Positions 1,851 to 29,241 of a DNA stretch of 32,330 nucleotides are shown one piece after another (the first letter of the stretch is position 1; each line of letters begins with the position of its first letter). A program made the translations under genes and the position numbers. Origin of the DNA: a virus (taxonomy: Duplodnaviria; Caudoviricetes); the IMG/VR virus record IMGVR_UViG_3300036886_000049, positions 1 to 32,330 of that record, one strand, 5' to 3'. The notes below the pieces were generated by a model, which ran no database searches, was not told the origin of the DNA, and saw only the letters and a program-made list of their open reading frames with translations.

Positions 1851-3095
1851 TCAGATGTCCGCGTCCGCGGTCCAGTGGATGGAGCAGAGGTCTCCCACCG
1901 CTCCGTTGGTCGTGGCCTCCGCGGTAACGGTGATCGAGGATCCGTACTCCGTGGTGGCGCTGGTGTTGGCCGCGGCCACTCCCTGCACGGCAGGAGTCGT
2001 TCCTGTGTGACGGTAGGCAGTGGCGCCCGCCCCGACAGGGGTGAAGAGGGTGAGCGTGGGGACTGCCCTCTTCCTCGCCACGAACTGGATGGGGACCTGG
2101 ACGGCCGCTGCCGTTCCCGAACCCGTCCTGTTGAGGATGGCCTGCGCCCCGTACCCGCCGTTGGCCACCGTGACCGACGCCGCGGGGGCGATCAGGAGCG
2201 GGAAGCTCTTCTCGTAGAAGCGCTGGCACGCGATGAGCTCATCCCCGAAGGAGCGCGGGTAGTAGTCGCGGACTTCCGAACCCACGTACAGCCCGCATTC
2301 GGTGATCTGGATGATGTCGTTGATCGCGGGGATCGAGTTCGTCCAGATGGTGGGGACAAGGTTTTTGATGTTGGTTCCCGGGGGGACCACGAAGGTCGCC
2401 GAGAACCTCTGCATGACCGCCGAGAGCACGCAGTCCACTCCGCCGCTGCCCCGGGTGTTGTTGATGACGCCCGTCGATTCGGTGAGGACGGGGTTCAGGG
2501 CCAGCATGTTCGTTCCCCAGGTGGGGTCAACGTTCACGAGGCCGAACGCCGACGCGATGGTGGCCGGCGGGGTGTCCGTGGTTCCCGAGGCGTTGAGGTA
2601 AAGCATCCCCAGGCGAAGGGTGGCGGGGTTGGTGAGGTACCTGGCCTTGAACTGGAAGCGCACGAGCAGCCCGGCGAGCTCCGTTGAGTCAGTTCCGTCC
2701 AGCCACTGCATGAGGACGAACTTCCCCGCTCCGGTGATCTGCTTGAAGTTCCCCATGAAGCGGGCTTTCACTCCCGCCACGGGAGCTCCGCTGTTGTCCA
2801 CGTTCTGGAACTGGAGGGAGGCCACCGAGTTGACCATGGCCCACCTGTCGGCGGCGTACACGCGCGCCGTGGTGGAGCTGTACGGGGTCAGCGTGGTGGG
2901 GACCTGCCGCTGGGCGATGGCGAACTCGGGGTTCATCAGGAAGTTCCTGTCCCTGATGCCCGATGGAGACAGCATGTCGATGCTGCCGTCCGACTGCATA
3001 GCCTTCAGGTTGCCATCGGCGGGGTCCTGGTAGATCGAAACCTTTCCCACCGGGGGAACGGAAGGGACCTCCTGAGAGAGAATGAGCTGACCCAT
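1851..3095 (-). CDS. Tail fibre / receptor-binding-like structural protein
   Basis: RNFLMNPEFAIAQR..ADRW..ELIACQRFYEKS..HWTADADI motifs typical of phage fibre/carbohydrate-binding proteins. Confidence 0.7.
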   Translation of the reverse strand: MGQLILSQEVPSVPPVGKVSIYQDPADGNLKAMQSDGSIDMLSPSGIRDRNFLMNPEFAIAQRQVPTTLTPYSSTTARVYAADRWAMVNSVASLQFQNVDNSGAPVAGVKARFMGNFKQITGAGKFVLMQWLDGTDSTELAGLLVRFQFKARYLTNPATLRLGMLYLNASGTTDTPPATIASAFGLVNVDPTWGTNMLALNPVLTESTGVINNTRGSGGVDCVLSAVMQRFSATFVVPPGTNIKNLVPTIWTNSIPAINDIIQITECGLYVGSEVRDYYPRSFGDELIACQRFYEKSFPLLIAPAASVTVANGGYGAQAILNRTGSGTAAAVQVPIQFVARKRAVPTLTLFTPVGAGATAYRHTGTTPAVQGVAAANTSATTEYGSSITVTAEATTNGAVGDLCSIHWTADADI

Positions 3096-3096
3096 G

Positions 3097-3279
3097 TTAT
3101 GTTACCTCCACGATTGATCCGAGACCCGCGTCTATGGAGGCCCCGGTTGAGAGTTCAAGACTCCGAGAGAAGATCATGAACTGGCTTGGCAACAGCACGA
3201 TGCTGTAGTTGATGAAGTTGGACATCGCCACGTATTCGGTGGCCGCTTTCCCCGCTATGTTCTTGCCGAGTTCACCCAT
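3097..3279 (-). CDS. Hypothetical small protein
   Basis: 60 aa, AAGGAG RBS, packed between neighbours. Confidence 0.6.
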   Translation of the reverse strand: MGELGKNIAGKAATEYVAMSNFINYSIVLLPSQFMIFSRSLELSTGASIDAGLGSIVEVT

Positions 3280-22784: not shown

Positions 22785-23551
22785 GCTCCCCCGCCGGCCT
22801 GTAGCGGAACGTCGTGCGCGGAGTCGTCCTTCGCCGTGAAGGCGGCAAGGGGGTCCCAGGAATCACTCTCGTCCTTCGGGAGGACCTCGCCCTCGACGAT
22901 CTCGTTCTCGTTGTAGTGGACCCACCACGCGGCCATGAGGATGCAGATCACGAGGTCGTCGTGGAGATCCTCGGTCTCGGCCATGTACTTTTGCTTTTTC
23001 TTGTTGAAGTTGAACCCCGTGAGTTGCGCCTCGATGGCCTCCCGGAAGGGGAGGTCCTTGGCGAAAGCAAGGCGTCCCTGCTCCAGGAGAAGCCCGCCAT
23101 CGGCAACGAGATCGCGCCGTGGCACCAGCCACTCCTTGATCGTGCGCATGGGGGAAAGCTCTCCCGAGCGGGACTCCCCGAAGACGCGGCCGATCTCCTC
23201 GTACACGGGATGCGCTCGGCCACCGTTGGTGAAGACGATGCTGTGCGGGAAACCCCCGAGCTTGCGGAGACGCTCGACTACCGCATCGCCGACGCCGGTT
23301 CCGTCCACCAACTCGTCGCAGTTGCCGCGAAGTTCCTTGCGGCGGATGAGGGCCATGTAGCGCCGCTCCATATCCTCATACCTGAGATTCTCGTCATGCC
23401 ACGCCCACACGCACTGAAGTTCGGAGAGGAGTCGGTCTGAGGATCCTGCCCGAGGGTCGCCATCGACGTAAGAGTACGACCGCTTGAACACGGCCTCCGC
23501 GTATCTATCGCGCTTCGAAGCTATGTCGAAGACGGCCAGGAACTCCTTGAT
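22775..23551 (-). CDS. Terminase large subunit, nuclease (RNase H-like) domain as a separate gene
   Basis: LAVFDIASKRD, LVDGTGVGDAVVE, HDDLVICI acidic motifs; proposed ATC start at 23551 after AGGAGG. Confidence 0.8.
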   Translation of the reverse strand: MKEFLAVFDIASKRDRYAEAVFKRSYSYVDGDPRAGSSDRLLSELQCVWAWHDENLRYEDMERRYMALIRRKELRGNCDELVDGTGVGDAVVERLRKLGGFPHSIVFTNGGRAHPVYEEIGRVFGESRSGELSPMRTIKEWLVPRRDLVADGGLLLEQGRLAFAKDLPFREAIEAQLTGFNFNKKKQKYMAETEDLHDDLVICILMAAWWVHYNENEIVEGEVLPKDESDSWDPLAAFTAKDDSAHDVPLQAGGGAWR

Positions 23552-23552
23552 T

Positions 23553-24236
23553 TTAGGCGGCCCTCCTATTGCCTTTGGCGAGATTTTCTGTCGCCCACAG
23601 CGGTTGGAGGTTTGTCCAATGCGAAGCCACGAACACAAGCGAGGAATCTTTTTTGAAAGGGAACCAGGAAATAGGGACGATGTGATCGACGTGCCACTCG
23701 CCGTAGTTCTCCCACGTCATGCCGGGTTTGAACAGAGATTCGAGATGGTTACGCAGGAATCCAGGTGAACATCCGATGAGTTGTCTTGTCCTGACGCTGG
23801 CGGTCTTCTCTTGGATCATTCGGCTGACAGCGGACCACGGAACCCTGTATCCGGGGTTATCCCTGTCGCGCCTTTTTTGCCATTCGTTCTTGAGAATGTT
23901 GTGACGACCTGGATTTTTTAGACGCCACTCGCGTGATCTTTCCCGTGCGCGCTCCCTGTTTTTTTCGGAGTATTTTAGGCACCTCGCAAGGAACTTACCG
24001 GGATCTTCGGCGTATTCTTTGCGCCTTCTCTCAGCGATCTCCTCCCTATGTTTCGCATCATACTTTCGCCTCACTTCGAGAATATGATCGTGGTTGGCCT
24101 TCTGGTAGCGCTTGATGCCCTGCCTGATTGTCTCGGTTCCTCCGGGATGAGCCTTCCTCCAGAGACGAGTCCTCTCACGAGCCTCCTCGCGGTGCTCCCT
24201 CTGGTATTTGCGATGTTCCTCCCGTCGGTCCTTCAT
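23553..24236 (-). CDS. HNH endonuclease (homing-type)
   Basis: HLESLFKPGMTWENYGEWHVDHIVP..HWTNLQPLWATENLAKGN; charged helical N-terminus; more AT-rich than flanks. Confidence 0.9.
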   Translation of the reverse strand: MKDRREEHRKYQREHREEARERTRLWRKAHPGGTETIRQGIKRYQKANHDHILEVRRKYDAKHREEIAERRRKEYAEDPGKFLARCLKYSEKNRERARERSREWRLKNPGRHNILKNEWQKRRDRDNPGYRVPWSAVSRMIQEKTASVRTRQLIGCSPGFLRNHLESLFKPGMTWENYGEWHVDHIVPISWFPFKKDSSLVFVASHWTNLQPLWATENLAKGNRRAA

Positions 24237-24239
24237 TGC

Positions 24240-24476
24240 TCAGTCGCCCGGGCAGTCGCCGTCCATGTCCATCGCGGGTTCGGCCGGGTCCCAGGGCTTG
24301 CCGTCCGAGCGCTGCGCGCCCTTGACGTAGTTTCCCGGCGCGGGCCACGGGGAAATCGGGACACGCCCGCCAGGGGTGTAGGCGGGAGCGGGGAGTGCGT
24401 TCCCGGGGTAGGGGTTGGAGATCCGCACCGCGTTTCTTCCGCCAGGGAGGGCGGGATTGCTCTTGCTCTTCGCCAT
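24240..24476 (-). CDS. Pro/Gly-rich hypothetical protein (78 aa, MAKSKSNPALPGG...)
   Basis: ATG overlaps the TAA of the upstream gene (TAATG). Confidence 0.6.
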   Translation of the reverse strand: MAKSKSNPALPGGRNAVRISNPYPGNALPAPAYTPGGRVPISPWPAPGNYVKGAQRSDGKPWDPAEPAMDMDGDCPGD

Positions 24477-24763
24477 TACGAGTTGGGGATCTGGGAAGCG
24501 GTCACCATCGCCGCCACCTCGGTCGGGGTGCAGAGCACCATGAAGACCTGGCCGTGGTTCCCCAGGGCGACCAGCTCGTCCATCGCGGCCTTCAGTCCCT
24601 TGACCTTCACGCAGTCCAACTCCGAGGGGGTCCCGTTGCCTCCCAGGAGAGCCGCCTGTACGCTGGCGCCAACGGTGCTGAAGTTGCGGTTCAGGCACTG
24701 CTTCAGCGTGAGCGATGCGCCTCCGACTTCCGTCGAGTCGATTTCCAGAATGTCGACAATGAT
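24476..24763 (-). CDS. Hypothetical protein with non-canonical ATC/ATT start (95 aa; not in the ORF track)
   Basis: GGAGG-8 nt-ATC ATT GTC GAC ATT CTG GAA...; GC3-rich codons; ends TAATG coupled to the next gene. Confidence 0.65.
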   Translation of the reverse strand: MIVDILEIDSTEVGGASLTLKQCLNRNFSTVGASVQAALLGGNGTPSELDCVKVKGLKAAMDELVALGNHGQVFMVLCTPTEVAAMVTASQIPNS

Positions 24764-24795
24764 GGCGTTACCCTCCCGGCAACAGTGTTGCCTCG

Positions 24796-24952
24796 AAAAA
24801 GTTGGGGCGGAAGCGGGCGCCGTGAGGATGAGTCAACGGTGCCGCGGCGAAGACTCCCTTCACGGGAGGCTGACACGAGTGGGTCGGGGAGTGTTTAGCT
24901 TCCCGATACTCGCACGGAGGATGGCCGTGCCGCGCGGTCTATCCCGCCCCTT
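24796..24952 (-). ncRNA. Candidate multi-stem ncRNA / structured leader
   Basis: Closing stem GGGGCGGGA/TTCCGCCCC, several internal hairpins, trailing U-run, promoter directly upstream. Confidence 0.55.
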
Positions 24953-24959
24953 GCTGTCG

Positions 24960-24988
24960 AGAATGTGTCGAATCGCGGGGAGAGTCAA
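24960..24988 (-). promoter_or_regulatory. sigma70-like promoter
   Basis: TTGACT-17 nt-CATTCT. Confidence 0.5.
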
Positions 24989-25134
24989 GTGCGCGACCGC
25001 TCCGCGTTGGTCTTCTTCACCTGCCGGTAGAGAGCCACGAGGGCCTGCTGCTGGCGGTTGGCCTTGTAGCCGTGTTCGATCTCGATCTCGACTGTCTCGG
25101 CCACATTCAACGCCTCGCTTACGGACATGCTCAT
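24985..25134 (-). CDS. Small hypothetical protein (49 aa, MSMSVSEALNVAETVEIEIEHGYKANRQQQALVALYRQVKKTNAERSRT)
   Basis: ATGA overlap with the terL ATPase stop; below the ORF-track cutoff. Confidence 0.55.
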   Translation of the reverse strand: MSMSVSEALNVAETVEIEIEHGYKANRQQQALVALYRQVKKTNAERSRT

Positions 25135-26057
25135 TCCTCGATCTCCTCCGGTTCCTCTCGGAACGCCTGTATGTCGTCACGCACGATGACCCCGGACTTC
25201 AGAGCCCGCAGGTCCTCGCCAACGGCGAATGCGCGCGCGATGTCGCTGTAGCTGAAAAGCTGGGCGTCCGGCTCGACGAACTCCCCGCACTGCTCTTGGC
25301 GGTACTGTTGCTGGCCGAGGTTCTTGAGCTGGACGTTGAGTTGGTGGTCGAGGTTGCGGTGCCGGGGGGAGTAGTAGCCGATGATCCCCTTCGTCTCCTG
25401 CTCCGCGGAGAACTCCTCCTCGGTCTGCATCATCTCAAGGGAGGTCCCGCTGGTCGGGGTGTAGGGCGAGCGCACGTAGTACCGCTCCCAGGATCGGTCG
25501 TGGAAGACTCGGAAGAAGAAGCCGGTCCGGCCGTTGGGCGTGGAGGGGACGAGGAGCTCGCAGTCGGGGTTGTCCGTGAGCATGGGGATGATACCGCTGG
25601 TGATCGCAACGTCTTCGACGCGGGACGCCTCATCGACGATGATGACCGAAGGCTTGCTGCGGCCGCGAGCGGATTTCTCGGTGGTGCAGAGGACCTCGAT
25701 GCGGCTCTCGTCTTCGGTGACGACAAGGGAGTCGGACTCCCGGATGAGCTTGGGGTAGGTTGGGTCGCGGGCCATACAGGCTTTGATCTTCAGCATGTCG
25801 TCGGTGGCCTGGTCCTCGGTGGCGGCCAGAACGAGGATCCGCGAGCCCGGCTTGTACTTGGCCGTGTGCGTTGGCACCACGGCGATGATGCTGGACTTCC
25901 CCGCCTGCCGGGCGCAGTTGAGGCACTTGAACTTGTGAGTCGAGGCCAGGAGGCGGCGCTGCCAAGAGAAAAGCACAAAGCCGGCAACGAGTTTCGCGTA
26001 GCGGACGCGATCCATTGCATAGACCGCGTCCTCATACGCCCGATGATCAAGCATCAA
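25131..26057 (-). CDS. Terminase large subunit, ATPase domain as a separate gene
   Basis: Walker A CARQAGKS, Walker B IIVDEA, coupling motif STPNG, YRQEQCGEF; stops before any nuclease domain. Confidence 0.9.
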   Translation of the reverse strand: MMLDHRAYEDAVYAMDRVRYAKLVAGFVLFSWQRRLLASTHKFKCLNCARQAGKSSIIAVVPTHTAKYKPGSRILVLAATEDQATDDMLKIKACMARDPTYPKLIRESDSLVVTEDESRIEVLCTTEKSARGRSKPSVIIVDEASRVEDVAITSGIIPMLTDNPDCELLVPSTPNGRTGFFFRVFHDRSWERYYVRSPYTPTSGTSLEMMQTEEEFSAEQETKGIIGYYSPRHRNLDHQLNVQLKNLGQQQYRQEQCGEFVEPDAQLFSYSDIARAFAVGEDLRALKSGVIVRDDIQAFREEPEEIEE

Positions 26058-26063
26058 GAAAGG

Positions 26064-26315
26064 CGCTCCTTGATTTTGGGTTACTCGCGTGCATCGGCTC
26101 GCTCGTTGCCAGTGGTTGACTCCTGCTCGGTGGCTCGCTCGATGAACCTGGTTTTCTCCCCTCCGCTGGCTCGCTCTCCATGTATGGGTGTCTTCGCGGT
26201 GTAGGCTCGCTCTTGACTGCTGGGTGACTCGGCAACCGTGGCTCGCTCGTACACGTTGGGTGACTCGTGAGCGCTGGCTCGCTCTGAATCTGTGGTTGAC
26301 TCAAACCAGATGGCG
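26064..26315 (-). repeat. TIGR-like dual-repeat array: 7 units of 36 bp, 14 unique short spacers
   Basis: Strict 18-bp period; alternating 10-bp repeats GAGCGAGCCA and GAGTCA(A/C)CCA separated by 8 variable nt. Confidence 0.85.
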
Positions 26316-26321
26316 TTCATG

Positions 26322-26489
26322 TTATGCGCTGTGCTTCTTCCCGAGATATTCCTCCTCGTAGGGTGCGCGGACTGGCAGTCCCTCAAGGGTACGCCACGCC
26401 ACGTACAGGTCGCGCAGGTAGATCGGGGTGGACAGGCGAAAGGGAAGGTCTCCCGATATGGCGAATCCGAAGGTGATCTCATACCTCAT
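26322..26489 (-). CDS. 55-aa ORF with Tas/Nop-family-like C-terminus (truncated Tas remnant or mini-protein)
   Basis: GGAGGT-8 nt-ATG; MRYEITFGFAISGDLPFRLSTPIYLRDLYVAWRTLEGLPVRAPYEEEYLGKKHSA; stop lies 6 nt before the array. Confidence 0.65.
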   Translation of the reverse strand: MRYEITFGFAISGDLPFRLSTPIYLRDLYVAWRTLEGLPVRAPYEEEYLGKKHSA

Positions 26490-27213
26490 CGGGGGTTACC
26501 TCCAAGGCCAGGGCCTTTTGCTCAAACATGGCGACAACACTCTCACGGGCCTCGGGGAACGGGGCCAGCGCAGCAATGATGTCGGACATGACAAAGCTCC
26601 AGATTTCGGTTCGGCTGATGTTGATCTTCACTTCCCCGCCCATCTTCTGGAGGTAGGCCACGCGGTCGATGACCTCCATCGCCAGGCGCATCGCGTCGTG
26701 GTAGAGCCGGCGGGTGTCGTCGCGCTTGACGGTGAACTCGAAGGCGGACTTGCCGCTCTCGGCCATCTGAGCGATGAGGACGGAGAGCTGGGTGGTCTTG
26801 CGCCGCGTGATGGGCGCGCCGTTCTTCGTCTCCTCGCCGGTGTCCTGATCGTAGTGGGCCACGACCTCCTCGGCCTGGAGGCCCATCCAGATTTTGGTGG
26901 GGTCGTTGGGGTCCTTCAGGTACTCCTCGAAGGCGGTGATGTTCCGCGCCGCCCGGTCGGCCATCTCCTCCAGCTTGGTGAGGAGTCCGTCCACGGTGCG
27001 CATCCCGCGCGCAGCGCGCCGCTGGGCAAGGACCTCGGCAACCCACTTCTGGCGGTACTGGCGGACAGTTCCCGCGGAGATCCCGTGGCGGCGCCCGATC
27101 TGCGCGTCGGTTCCGCGGTCGTCCTCGATGTCCTTGAGGATGGCGGCCCTCCGAGGGTGGGTGTCGATGACGGTGGCCTGCGGGGCGCGAAGGTGGCGCG
27201 AGGGGGTGCTCAT
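26479..27213 (-). CDS. Probable terminase small subunit (N-terminal HTH)
   Basis: TDAQIGRRHGISAGTVRQY HTH, helical body, upstream of terL. Confidence 0.55.
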   Translation of the reverse strand: MSTPSRHLRAPQATVIDTHPRRAAILKDIEDDRGTDAQIGRRHGISAGTVRQYRQKWVAEVLAQRRAARGMRTVDGLLTKLEEMADRAARNITAFEEYLKDPNDPTKIWMGLQAEEVVAHYDQDTGEETKNGAPITRRKTTQLSVLIAQMAESGKSAFEFTVKRDDTRRLYHDAMRLAMEVIDRVAYLQKMGGEVKINISRTEIWSFVMSDIIAALAPFPEARESVVAMFEQKALALEVTPDEV

Positions 27214-27464
27214 TTCGACCTCGGGTAGTTAGGATCGACCCAATGCTGCATGAAGAGGATGAAGTCGCGGACGCTGAACGTCGGCGGGTGCTGACCTCCG
27301 TGCCACCTGCCCGAACGATGTATCAGACCGACGATGGTGACGCGGTGGTCCCTCTTGGCGAGCCAGTTCTCGATCAGGGCCTCGATGCCGGCCGTCCAGT
27401 TCTTCAGGAAGCCATAAGGAACCGCACGTCGCACCGCGGCGACGATTCTCAGGAGGCGCTTCAT
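27210..27464 (-). CDS. Hypothetical protein (MKRLLRIVAAV...)
   Basis: ATGA overlaps at both ends; start re-called at 27464. Confidence 0.55.
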   Translation of the reverse strand: MKRLLRIVAAVRRAVPYGFLKNWTAGIEALIENWLAKRDHRVTIVGLIHRSGRWHGGQHPPTFSVRDFILFMQHWVDPNYPRSK

Positions 27465-28036
27465 CGGGTGAGCCTCGCAAGGTCGATGAGCTTGGACAGG
27501 ACGAAGCGGGTCATCTTCAGGTCGAAGGATGCGTCGTGGGCGCCGGTGGTGTCCATCCCGAAGTGGAGGGCCAGGTCGGTGAGTTTGGCGTCTGCCAGGG
27601 GTACGTCCACGCCCATGTAGGCCAGCGCTGCCAGGAGGGATGACGGGTCCAGGGCCGCGAAGTGGAACCACGATCCGAAGTAGTCGTCGTGGTTGTCCTT
27701 CCAGAGTTGGCGCAGGAAGGCCATGTCGAAGTCCCGCACGTTGTACCCGCCGGCCATGAACTTGTCGTGGTGGTCGTACTTGTCCACGTACTGGCCGAAG
27801 ATGTCCAGCAGGGAGTAGTACATCCCCCGGGGCGGGGGGAATCCAAGGAGCTGCCCGCGGCTGAAGTGGTTGATGTTCAGGGCCGAGTCGTCGATGGCCT
27901 TGCCCTCACAGGAGGAGCGCAGTTCTCCCGAGGCCACTTCCTGGCCGTCGATCTCCACGGCGTAGGACAGGCTGATGATGCCGTGGTGCGCGGGGTCGAG
28001 GCCGCTCGTTTCCAAATCCATCCAGAAAATCTTCAT
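27461..28036 (-). CDS. DEDDh 3'-5' exonuclease (DnaQ-like)
   Basis: ExoI DLETSG, ExoII YNVRDFD, ExoIII HDASFD. Confidence 0.9.
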   Translation of the reverse strand: MKIFWMDLETSGLDPAHHGIISLSYAVEIDGQEVASGELRSSCEGKAIDDSALNINHFSRGQLLGFPPPRGMYYSLLDIFGQYVDKYDHHDKFMAGGYNVRDFDMAFLRQLWKDNHDDYFGSWFHFAALDPSSLLAALAYMGVDVPLADAKLTDLALHFGMDTTGAHDASFDLKMTRFVLSKLIDLARLTR

Positions 28037-28354: not shown

Positions 28355-29241
28355 TACGCGGGCCCTCCCTCGATTATCTCTCTTACCGCAGGATCAAGCT
28401 CATCTTGGCGCATCGACTCCAGAACCCTGTCCCAGATACTCACCGTGTTCAGAGTGCTGGGCGTGAACGGCTGTCCCGCCCAGAACCTGTCTCTCGACTG
28501 CTTCAACTTCCAGAAGGCGTCGATCACCGCAGCAACTACCTCCTCAGCATTCTCCTTGTCCCTGGCTTTGGCCCTCTTGATGATCTGCTTGATCGACGCT
28601 CCCTCACGAGCGTAGTCGGTGAACTTATTCCCGTTCTGGCTCAGGAACGCCTGCTCAACCTTGTGGTACAACTCCCCATCCTCTCCTATAGTCTCCCGAG
28701 TTATCTTCTCTTTCTTCGAAGAAAGAGAATTAGGAAGTTCAGTATAAGATAAGGTGTCGCGAGGACTCGTCGAGGACTCGTCGAATGATCCAGGAGTTGT
28801 AGTCGAATCATTGGTTTTGGACACACTGAGCTTTTTTGTATTCGACGAACGCTCGACGAGTAATCGACGAGTAATCGACGATAGATCAGCGAGGACTTCT
28901 ACCGTAGAATCGTCTATCCCTGGAATGGTTGATGGAGTGGGTCTGTCTATTCTCTGGTAGCGAAACCAATTAGGATGCCATAGATAGGCATAGCTATCAT
29001 CCCTGTAAACCACCACCAGACCGGACCTGGCTATTTGCTCAAGATCAACACCCACCATTTTCTCGCTGAAGTTGTCGCACGGATGAACCCTGGCTCTGAA
29101 AAGAGGCAGTGATACCTTCACCCGTCCATCGTCGTCAGCTTGTGATATCAGGTAGATGTACAACTTGAACTGAGAATCGGTCAGCTCCATCACCTGCTGA
29201 CTATCCCATATCCTCGGATCAATCATCCGTTTCCTTGCCAC
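28354..29241 (-). CDS. Phage replication initiator / replisome organiser
   Basis: ARKRMIDPRIW..KLYIYLISQADDDGR..PNWFRYQRIDRPTPS.IP N-terminus; internal iterons; start re-called at GTG 29241 after AAAGGA. Confidence 0.8.
   Translation of the reverse strand: MARKRMIDPRIWDSQQVMELTDSQFKLYIYLISQADDDGRVKVSLPLFRARVHPCDNFSEKMVGVDLEQIARSGLVVVYRDDSYAYLWHPNWFRYQRIDRPTPSTIPGIDDSTVEVLADLSSITRRLLVERSSNTKKLSVSKTNDSTTTPGSFDESSTSPRDTLSYTELPNSLSSKKEKITRETIGEDGELYHKVEQAFLSQNGNKFTDYAREGASIKQIIKRAKARDKENAEEVVAAVIDAFWKLKQSRDRFWAGQPFTPSTLNTVSIWDRVLESMRQDELDPAVREIIEGGPA
28766..28882. repeat. Iteron cluster, probable replication origin
   Basis: TCGACGA(G) at 28842, 28853, 28864, 28875 (11-bp period) and inverted copies CTCGTCGA at 28766, 28777 around an AT-richer core. 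Confidence 0.7.

Follow-up and report, generated by a model that had tools for sequence, protein, structure and literature searches.

Can a guide-RNA array lying in the packaging operon of a phage be assigned to the TIGR systems and, if so, which protein would use it and what would its guides recognise? Natural TIGR targets and the mode of spacer change are left open in the Discussions of Faure et al. 2025 (PMC12045711) and of a September 2026 preprint (Xu et al., 10.64898/2026.09.09.750476), the latter describing the majority of natural targets as undetermined. The window (the whole stretch of DNA analysed, 32,330 nt) is a linear virus contig, 53% complete according to CheckV, of a podovirus-like phage (portal, GP7-type capsid and terminase ATPase). 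At least half of the stretch is contained in 8 of the 20 listed runs, which are peat metagenomes, while the largest share present in any RNA run is 0.09. The best result of a host search, a terL match of 49% on a contig from a Treponema MAG, is too weak for naming a host.

Structure and position of the array

The array occupies 26064..26315 on the - strand and is found exactly as quoted in the original prediction. It comprises seven units of 36 nt (252 nt), each with half an edge repeat, an 8-nt spacer A, a 10-nt loop repeat, an 8-nt spacer B and a further half edge repeat. Unit 4 (26172..26207, -) carries spacers ACACCGCG / TACATGGA and unit 7 (26064..26099, -) spacers ATGCACGC / AAATCAAG. 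This corresponds to the published description of dual-repeat TIGR arrays: alternating 8-12-nt repeats, short variable spacers and a 36-nt unit, mostly with 5-15 units (PMC12045711). Repeat motifs diverge but covary between systems, those of TaTIGR being UG...CCA (PMC12045711).

The motif CC-N10-AG-N4 is present on the - strand in 14 tandem copies with a constant period of 18 nt. When the window was simulated 200 times with a first-order Markov model, the longest run was three, seen once, and the longest run on the + strand of the window is two. CC and AG occur in 14/14 repeats and CCA in 12/14. Compared by column, the repeats are near-invariant and both 8-nt spacer blocks are variable, with all 14 spacers distinct. 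Both termini fall within the middle of GAGCG|AGCCA, so that the array starts and ends with a truncated edge repeat. These motif and column counts bear out the exact 18-bp period, the 14 differing spacers and the half-repeat ends that had been claimed, and the array gives the single period-36 peak of the window.

The array is located between a gene for a helix-turn-helix protein (26479..27213, -; Pfam HTH_23 below cut-off, no PHROG match), which from its position is likely to be the small terminase gene terS, and the large terminase ATPase gene terL (25131..26057, -; Pfam TerL_ATPase and PHROG terL), whose start is 6 nt past the array end. It was thus correctly placed in the DNA-packaging operon. 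No family is returned at E<=0.1 by an Rfam search of 23000-27700, and no terminator-like sites are found on the - strand at 25900-27700; an intrinsic terminator after a TIGR array is typical, not obligatory (PMC12045711).

A deleted tasA gene upstream of the array

Directly upstream of the array is a fusion ORF of 55 aa (26489-26322), for which 136 longer proteins give matches, in each case at their extreme C-terminus. Protein and profile matches identify its 3' part (26322..26417, -) as what is left of a deleted tasA, its final 31 codons with the stop; the full gene probably encoded a Nop-only Tas. The tail is identical to the C-terminus of the full-length relative P0001 at 30/33 residues, and positions 228-260 alone of a Tas profile (HMM, 260 positions) are matched in the window (E 5e-19). 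For P0001 itself, alignments are obtained with TasH (E 5e-15) and PDB 9mty (E 1e-12); the remnant alone has no match in PDB. The closest full-length relatives of the remnant are Nop-only proteins of about 235 aa, some of which have array-derived N-terminal extensions. The 5' half of the ORF (26418..26489, -) belongs to an unrelated small gene, fused in frame to the tasA tail and homologous to a small gene that is intact after terS in the sister phage L181.

The junction between the two parts contains an 11-nt microhomology (CCTGCGCGACC; 26408..26418, -), defined by the L181 alignment, a contig from run X8 and the tasA loci. The X8 contig has the same sequence as the window across 26408-26690 and diverges beyond; hand translation of the divergent part extends the small gene. 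The switch falls on the 11 nt common to the small gene and to tasA genes, from which we infer that a microhomology deletion left the 31 tasA codons. This deletion looks very recent, the upstream DNA being identical to the undeleted X8 allele. An assembly artefact was considered and rejected, since no differences are seen in the contigs that cross the junction in X6, in X7 and in X3, a possible source of the window, and 8 contigs from three sources encode the fusion protein.

No Nop or IS110 domain is found among the 40 ORFs scanned in the window, and no intact tas in the window or in genomes G001, G002, G003 and G004. The record being 53% complete, a second tas may lie elsewhere in the phage, although G001, a near-identical sister of 45 kb, is without tas. 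Other parts of the Tas profile are absent from the window, G001 and G002. Tas is required for the processing of TIGR arrays (PMC12045711) and tasA is deleted here; the array is therefore expected to be inert in single infection. The prediction of seven guides has to be restricted in this sense: mature guides are not expected from this phage alone. Clearly, the array is a genuine member of the published tasParB-tasA type of dual-repeat TIGR arrays; it is an orphan, with no working system in this genome. Its assignment to TIGR, with GAGCG|AGCCA as the edge repeat, was already proposed from the sequence and stands on the architecture, the tasA remnant directly upstream and the geometry-specific target matches described below.

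The terS-terL interval in sister phages

Relatives were picked for the similarity of their terL proteins, ahead of all spacer searches. There are 11 in viral contigs, two of them close, and a terS search of metagenome contigs added a third (L181). One close relative, L151/G001, is 99% identical to the window over 23 kb. In L151/G001 and in L181 the terS-terL interval holds small ORFs without an array. In the other, L152/G002, it holds a ParB-like gene (PHROG ParB-like, E 5.6e-7) and an array of eight units without tasA; the repeats are the same as those of the window and one unit is 37 nt long. In the window it holds the tasA tail and the array, and parB is absent.

The gene that precedes tasA is homologous to the L152 ParB at 10 of the 11 tasA loci selected, an arrangement named tasParB-tasA by Faure et al. 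2025 (PMC12045711). A near-identical ParB (P0128) and an intact TasA (P0002) each lie on a 5,585-bp ENA contig, and the start of the L152 array translates to the same 11 residues as the array-derived N-terminus of P0002. Together these observations point to an ancestral cassette, parB - array - tasA - array, which would have been lost in two ways (a microhomology deletion and, probably, array-array recombination) and which is never seen intact in this group. Searches of viral contigs with P0002, P0001 or the L152 ParB as queries, and of metagenome contigs by array-end pattern or terS, gave no intact cassette in kin, and none of the 11 other tasA loci examined adjoins a homologue of this terminase. 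Arrays with the GAGCG|AGCCA edge have a Tas-profile match nearby on 48 of 61 contigs, weak matches counted; these contigs come from the first 80 loci (those having flanks) out of 151 that carry this edge. Decayed cassettes of the kind described here would escape tas-anchored surveys such as TIGRFinder.

Guide targets in the terL genes of kin

In TIGR guides, spacer A and spacer B recognise neighbouring sites, one on each strand (PMC12045711). Targets were therefore searched, according to this published geometry, as spacer A joined to the reverse complement of spacer B (8+8 nt) for all 15 guides of the two arrays in 241,329 bases (both strands of the window, G001, G002 and L181). Unit 4 of the window matches at 16/16 positions in the first terL codons of the array-less sister L151/G001. 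Unit 7 matches at 15/16 in terL of L151/G001 and L181, with a further 14/16 site in a small ORF just upstream of G001 terL. Unit 5 of L152 matches at 16/16 in terL of G001 and in that of the window, here at 25852..25867 (-). Two of the 15 guides thus have a perfect target and three a target within one mismatch, all three in the first 300 nt of terL.

Among 20,000 shuffled guides, 66 match within one mismatch, two of them perfectly and 64 at one mismatch, giving binomial P values of 1e-6 for two perfect matches and 1.6e-5 for three near matches. The search of A + rc(B) against phage that had been proposed as a check yields three terL matches with P about 2e-5. Unrelated TIGR guides (n=1,096) give no perfect match and two at one mismatch; three wrong geometries each give 0/15 within one mismatch; and non-cognate spacer pairings give 0/206 perfect and 4/206 at one mismatch. 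The matches are gapless, 8+8 nt in length, and arise only with edge-A-loop-B pairing and A + rc(B). This supports the view that spacers A and B would read adjacent sites on opposite strands here also. Spacers of 9 nt and gaps of 1-2 nt give no better matches. The suggestion that functional spacers may be of 9 nt is not supported, the extra positions adding mismatches, and spacer length for this clade is fixed at 8+8.

The remaining 12 guides (five of seven in the window and seven of eight in L152) have no target within two mismatches in the kin compared. The last unit of L152 is three mismatches from the site that window guide 7 fits with one. Collection-wide scans with guides 6, 2 and 3 gave 35, 39 and 57 exact matches, which is the chance level. 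None is in a close relative by blastn, and tblastn relates only four near-identical records (guide 6) to the window. In these records the tail gene is 28% and the portal 24% identical, and the guide-6 match was not counted. The four (L188, L204, L211 and L213) represent a distant podovirus-like phage with the site in its tail gene, a homologue (28%) of window 15483-13594, and the match may be due to chance. A more general rule, that guides resemble their own flanking genes, was not retained: 60 of 685 units from other arrays are within three mismatches of their own flanks compared with 44, 48 and 46 in controls, no clear excess in what is a weak test, close kin not being included. The route to TIGR targets that this locus indicates is to search close kin only.

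Own alleles and self-avoidance

Each array-bearing phage differs from its own guides at the corresponding sites. The window allele of the guide-4 site (26021..26036, -) has four mismatches, three at third positions and one changing Met to Glu. It lies in a recoded terL 5' end, with a GC3 of 0.61 compared with 0.94 in L151. The window allele of the guide-7 site (25774..25789, -) also has four mismatches to the guide; compared with L151, three codons in a row each carry a synonymous change. L152 has three synonymous differences, again in consecutive codons, in its own allele of the unit-5 site. Own-allele mismatches are thus 4, 4 and 3 at the three sites, and nearly all are synonymous. Further clustered terL substitutions among the sisters (L152 at about 2740-2770 and about 3070-3100; window 25575-25520) possibly reflect escape from guides outside this sample.

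These alleles bear on the notion that the guides formerly adjusted expression of the phage's own terminase, matches to kin reflecting an ancestral own allele. The target is indeed the next gene in the operon and TasA is a reversible repressor (10.64898/2026.09.09.750476), but clustered synonymous changes precisely at the own target sites indicate escape and not maintenance, and we regard such self-regulation as very unlikely.

Spacer turnover

The last two units are shared between the window and L152: the repeats are identical at 40/40 nt and the spacers at 27/32. In units further in, the repeats remain alike (17-20/20) and spacer identity falls to 1-6/16. The fourth-last unit carries in both phages the same rare repeat variant (found in one of 1,096 other units) together with wholly different spacers, both of which match kin terL. 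This hints at spacer replacement in place, inside an existing unit, from one pair of arrays compared. In the shared units (26064-26135) each of the five spacer changes between the window and L152 affects a position that is A in the window sequence (Fisher P 0.002, post hoc). Adenine-biased, DGR-like spacer mutation was rejected as a rule: in 28 other near-identical pairs 27 of 62 changes are at A. No reverse transcriptase is found in G001 or G002.

We also considered whether the array simply encodes repeated protein units of 12 residues (ERA..E..) and has no function as RNA. An ATG at 26320 begins a reading frame that stays open across most of the array, and arrays situated upstream of tasA often form part of the TasA reading frame, as an N-terminal extension of the protein. 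This frame stops inside unit 7, however, the L152 array contains a stop and a frameshift, and four of the five changes in the shared units fall at first or second codon positions. Coding would also leave the A + rc(B) matches unexplained. The reading is largely refuted and almost certainly wrong.

Alleles occurring together in metagenomes

In run X6 the window allele (depth 6.7) is found alongside an array-less allele (depth 28-30). The latter equals L151 at 19/19 listed sites, including the guide-7 site, although X6 may share the source of L151. Run X7 contains window-type and L152-type pieces together, and array content is therefore polymorphic within one sample. A loose end in X7 at 26308 represents a third allele, whose tasA 3' end is the same and whose first unit is different; no target is found in kin for that unit. 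Another, at 26140, joins an L152-type unit to the shared last units.

Proposed function

The array of the window is the leftover of a tasA deletion, and its guides match the terL of sisters and not its own; the intact cassette, we think, probably acted as an RNA-guided repressor of co-infecting relatives. In this scheme, which is built from sequence comparisons, the array would be transcribed along with the packaging operon and the transcript would be cut by TasA into 36-nt guides. A TasA dimer, free of nuclease, would then bind the rival's terL near its start and block transcription, and the rival, with terL repressed, would package fewer genomes. Synonymous recoding of the phage's own terL sites would provide self-immunity. 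During single infection the array in the window would stay silent, and it could be used only with TasA from a co-infecting sister.

Besides the terL matches and the tasA remnant, further observations support such kin interference: TasA, which has no nuclease, represses transcription in E. coli (Xu et al., 10.64898/2026.09.09.750476), target and array alleles share samples, and own sites are recoded. On the other hand, both array-bearing members are without tasA, and an effector lost twice fits badly with a strong benefit. TasR, moreover, caused no drop in phage plaquing in E. coli (PMC12045711), which also counts against it, as do the 12 guides for which kin offer no target, the lack of a clear excess among the 685 units and the position of the 11 other tasA loci away from this terminase family.

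The position of the targets could alternatively be explained by a homing-like drive. Here, guides would mark the cassette-free allele beside the insertion site and recombination would copy in the cassette with the recoded terL start, the lesion being made by TasA, TasParB or the neighbouring HNH nuclease. Such a drive needs a nuclease and TasA has none; L152 guide 5 aims at the window, which is already cassette-bearing; and other tasParB-tasA cassettes do not adjoin terL. It would nevertheless account for the location of all three targets within 300 nt of the cassette edge, for a guide-4 site situated in the first codons of the array-less allele and for the recoded first 90 nt of terL, which are identical in the window and L152. 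The same operon carries optional free-standing HNH genes, and homing endonucleases are described as clustering at terminase genes (PMC10055350). Taken with its lesion maker, the drive appears unlikely to us.

It is also conceivable, but rather improbable, that orphan arrays are kept for an activity in trans, loading onto the TasA of a co-infecting sister and redirecting or diluting it (as guide donor or decoy). There are two separate tasA losses, with the array retained both times. The repeats of the two shared units are unchanged at 40/40 nt where spacers differ at 5/32, and several alleles are present in common samples. If the deletion is as recent as it looks, intact repeats need no selection, and the L152 array has signs of decay in its 37-nt unit and in a last unit three mismatches from the guide-7 site. 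A broader proposition combines kin interference with such activity in trans: TIGR-TasA cassettes would be reprogrammable modules against the neighbouring essential gene, their spacers rewritten in place, and Tas-less arrays would persist as cheaters, arming or hijacking the TasA of co-infecting sisters. As a joint claim this is no better than a doubtful possibility. The idea of inter-phage competition, in which the guides repress terL of relatives, can be tested directly with the three guide-target pairs.

Relationship to known systems

The locus resembles the tasParB-tasA loci of Faure et al. 2025 (PMC12045711) in its 36-nt units with 10-nt edge and loop repeats, in the array directly downstream of tasA and in the ParB-like gene of the L152 interval. 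It differs from these loci (PMC12045711) in that tasA is reduced to 31 codons in the window, parB is absent and no terminator follows the array, and in that natural targets can be named, in the terL of sister phages. With SpTIGR-TasH of Salicola phage CGphi29 (PMC12045711; PMC13421893) it shares 8-nt spacers, a 16-bp target and, in the remnant, the C-terminal stretch with the Y/H processing loop. Unlike TasH, relatives of the remnant are without an HNH domain, and the window contains no intact protein.

VIPR systems (10.64898/2026.04.26.720920) are likewise phage-borne, with RNA-guided repression and natural targets in competing phages. They use another protein and guide code, whereas here the orthologous packaging gene is targeted in near-identical kin and the self allele is recoded. 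Homing endonucleases that act in interference competition (PhiPA3 gp210, PMC11620839) and the free-standing ones encoded near terL in phages (PMC10055350) are likewise elements next to an essential gene, attacking a rival's allele of it and sparing their own; here specificity would be RNA-encoded and multiplexed and the effector without nuclease.

The array type is therefore already described; what is new is the naming of natural guide targets in kin terL. We found no report of natural targets in kin terminase genes or of orphan arrays in the parts of the TIGR literature accessible without subscription. The two repeats and the term 'ParB' are absent from the four text files of the Faure supplements (PMC12045711), and figs S4 and S14 may show the repeat type. 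The locus provides three named guide-target pairs, each accompanied by a resistant allele, a rare lead on natural TIGR targets.

Other features of the phage

The large terminase appears to be split (26057-22775, -): its ATPase is encoded at 26057-25131 and, probably, its nuclease at about 23575-22775, with three small ORFs and an HNH gene in between, a layout common to L151, L152 and L181. At the start of the likely nuclease gene is an optional free-standing HNH gene (endonuclease VII-like; 24236-23553, -), which is of one type in the window and L151, replaced by a different ORF in L152 (4382-4879) and absent from L181 (about 7150). A short AAGGA repeat flanks this HNH gene in the window, and the gene downstream of it seemingly lacks an ATG or GTG start, with AGGAGG 10 nt before an ATC codon. 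A NUMOD4-HNH homing-endonuclease-like gene is present at 30146-29730 (-). Finally, 11-nt tandem repeats at 28760-28881, in two inverted blocks inside the replication-initiator gene, resemble origin iterons.
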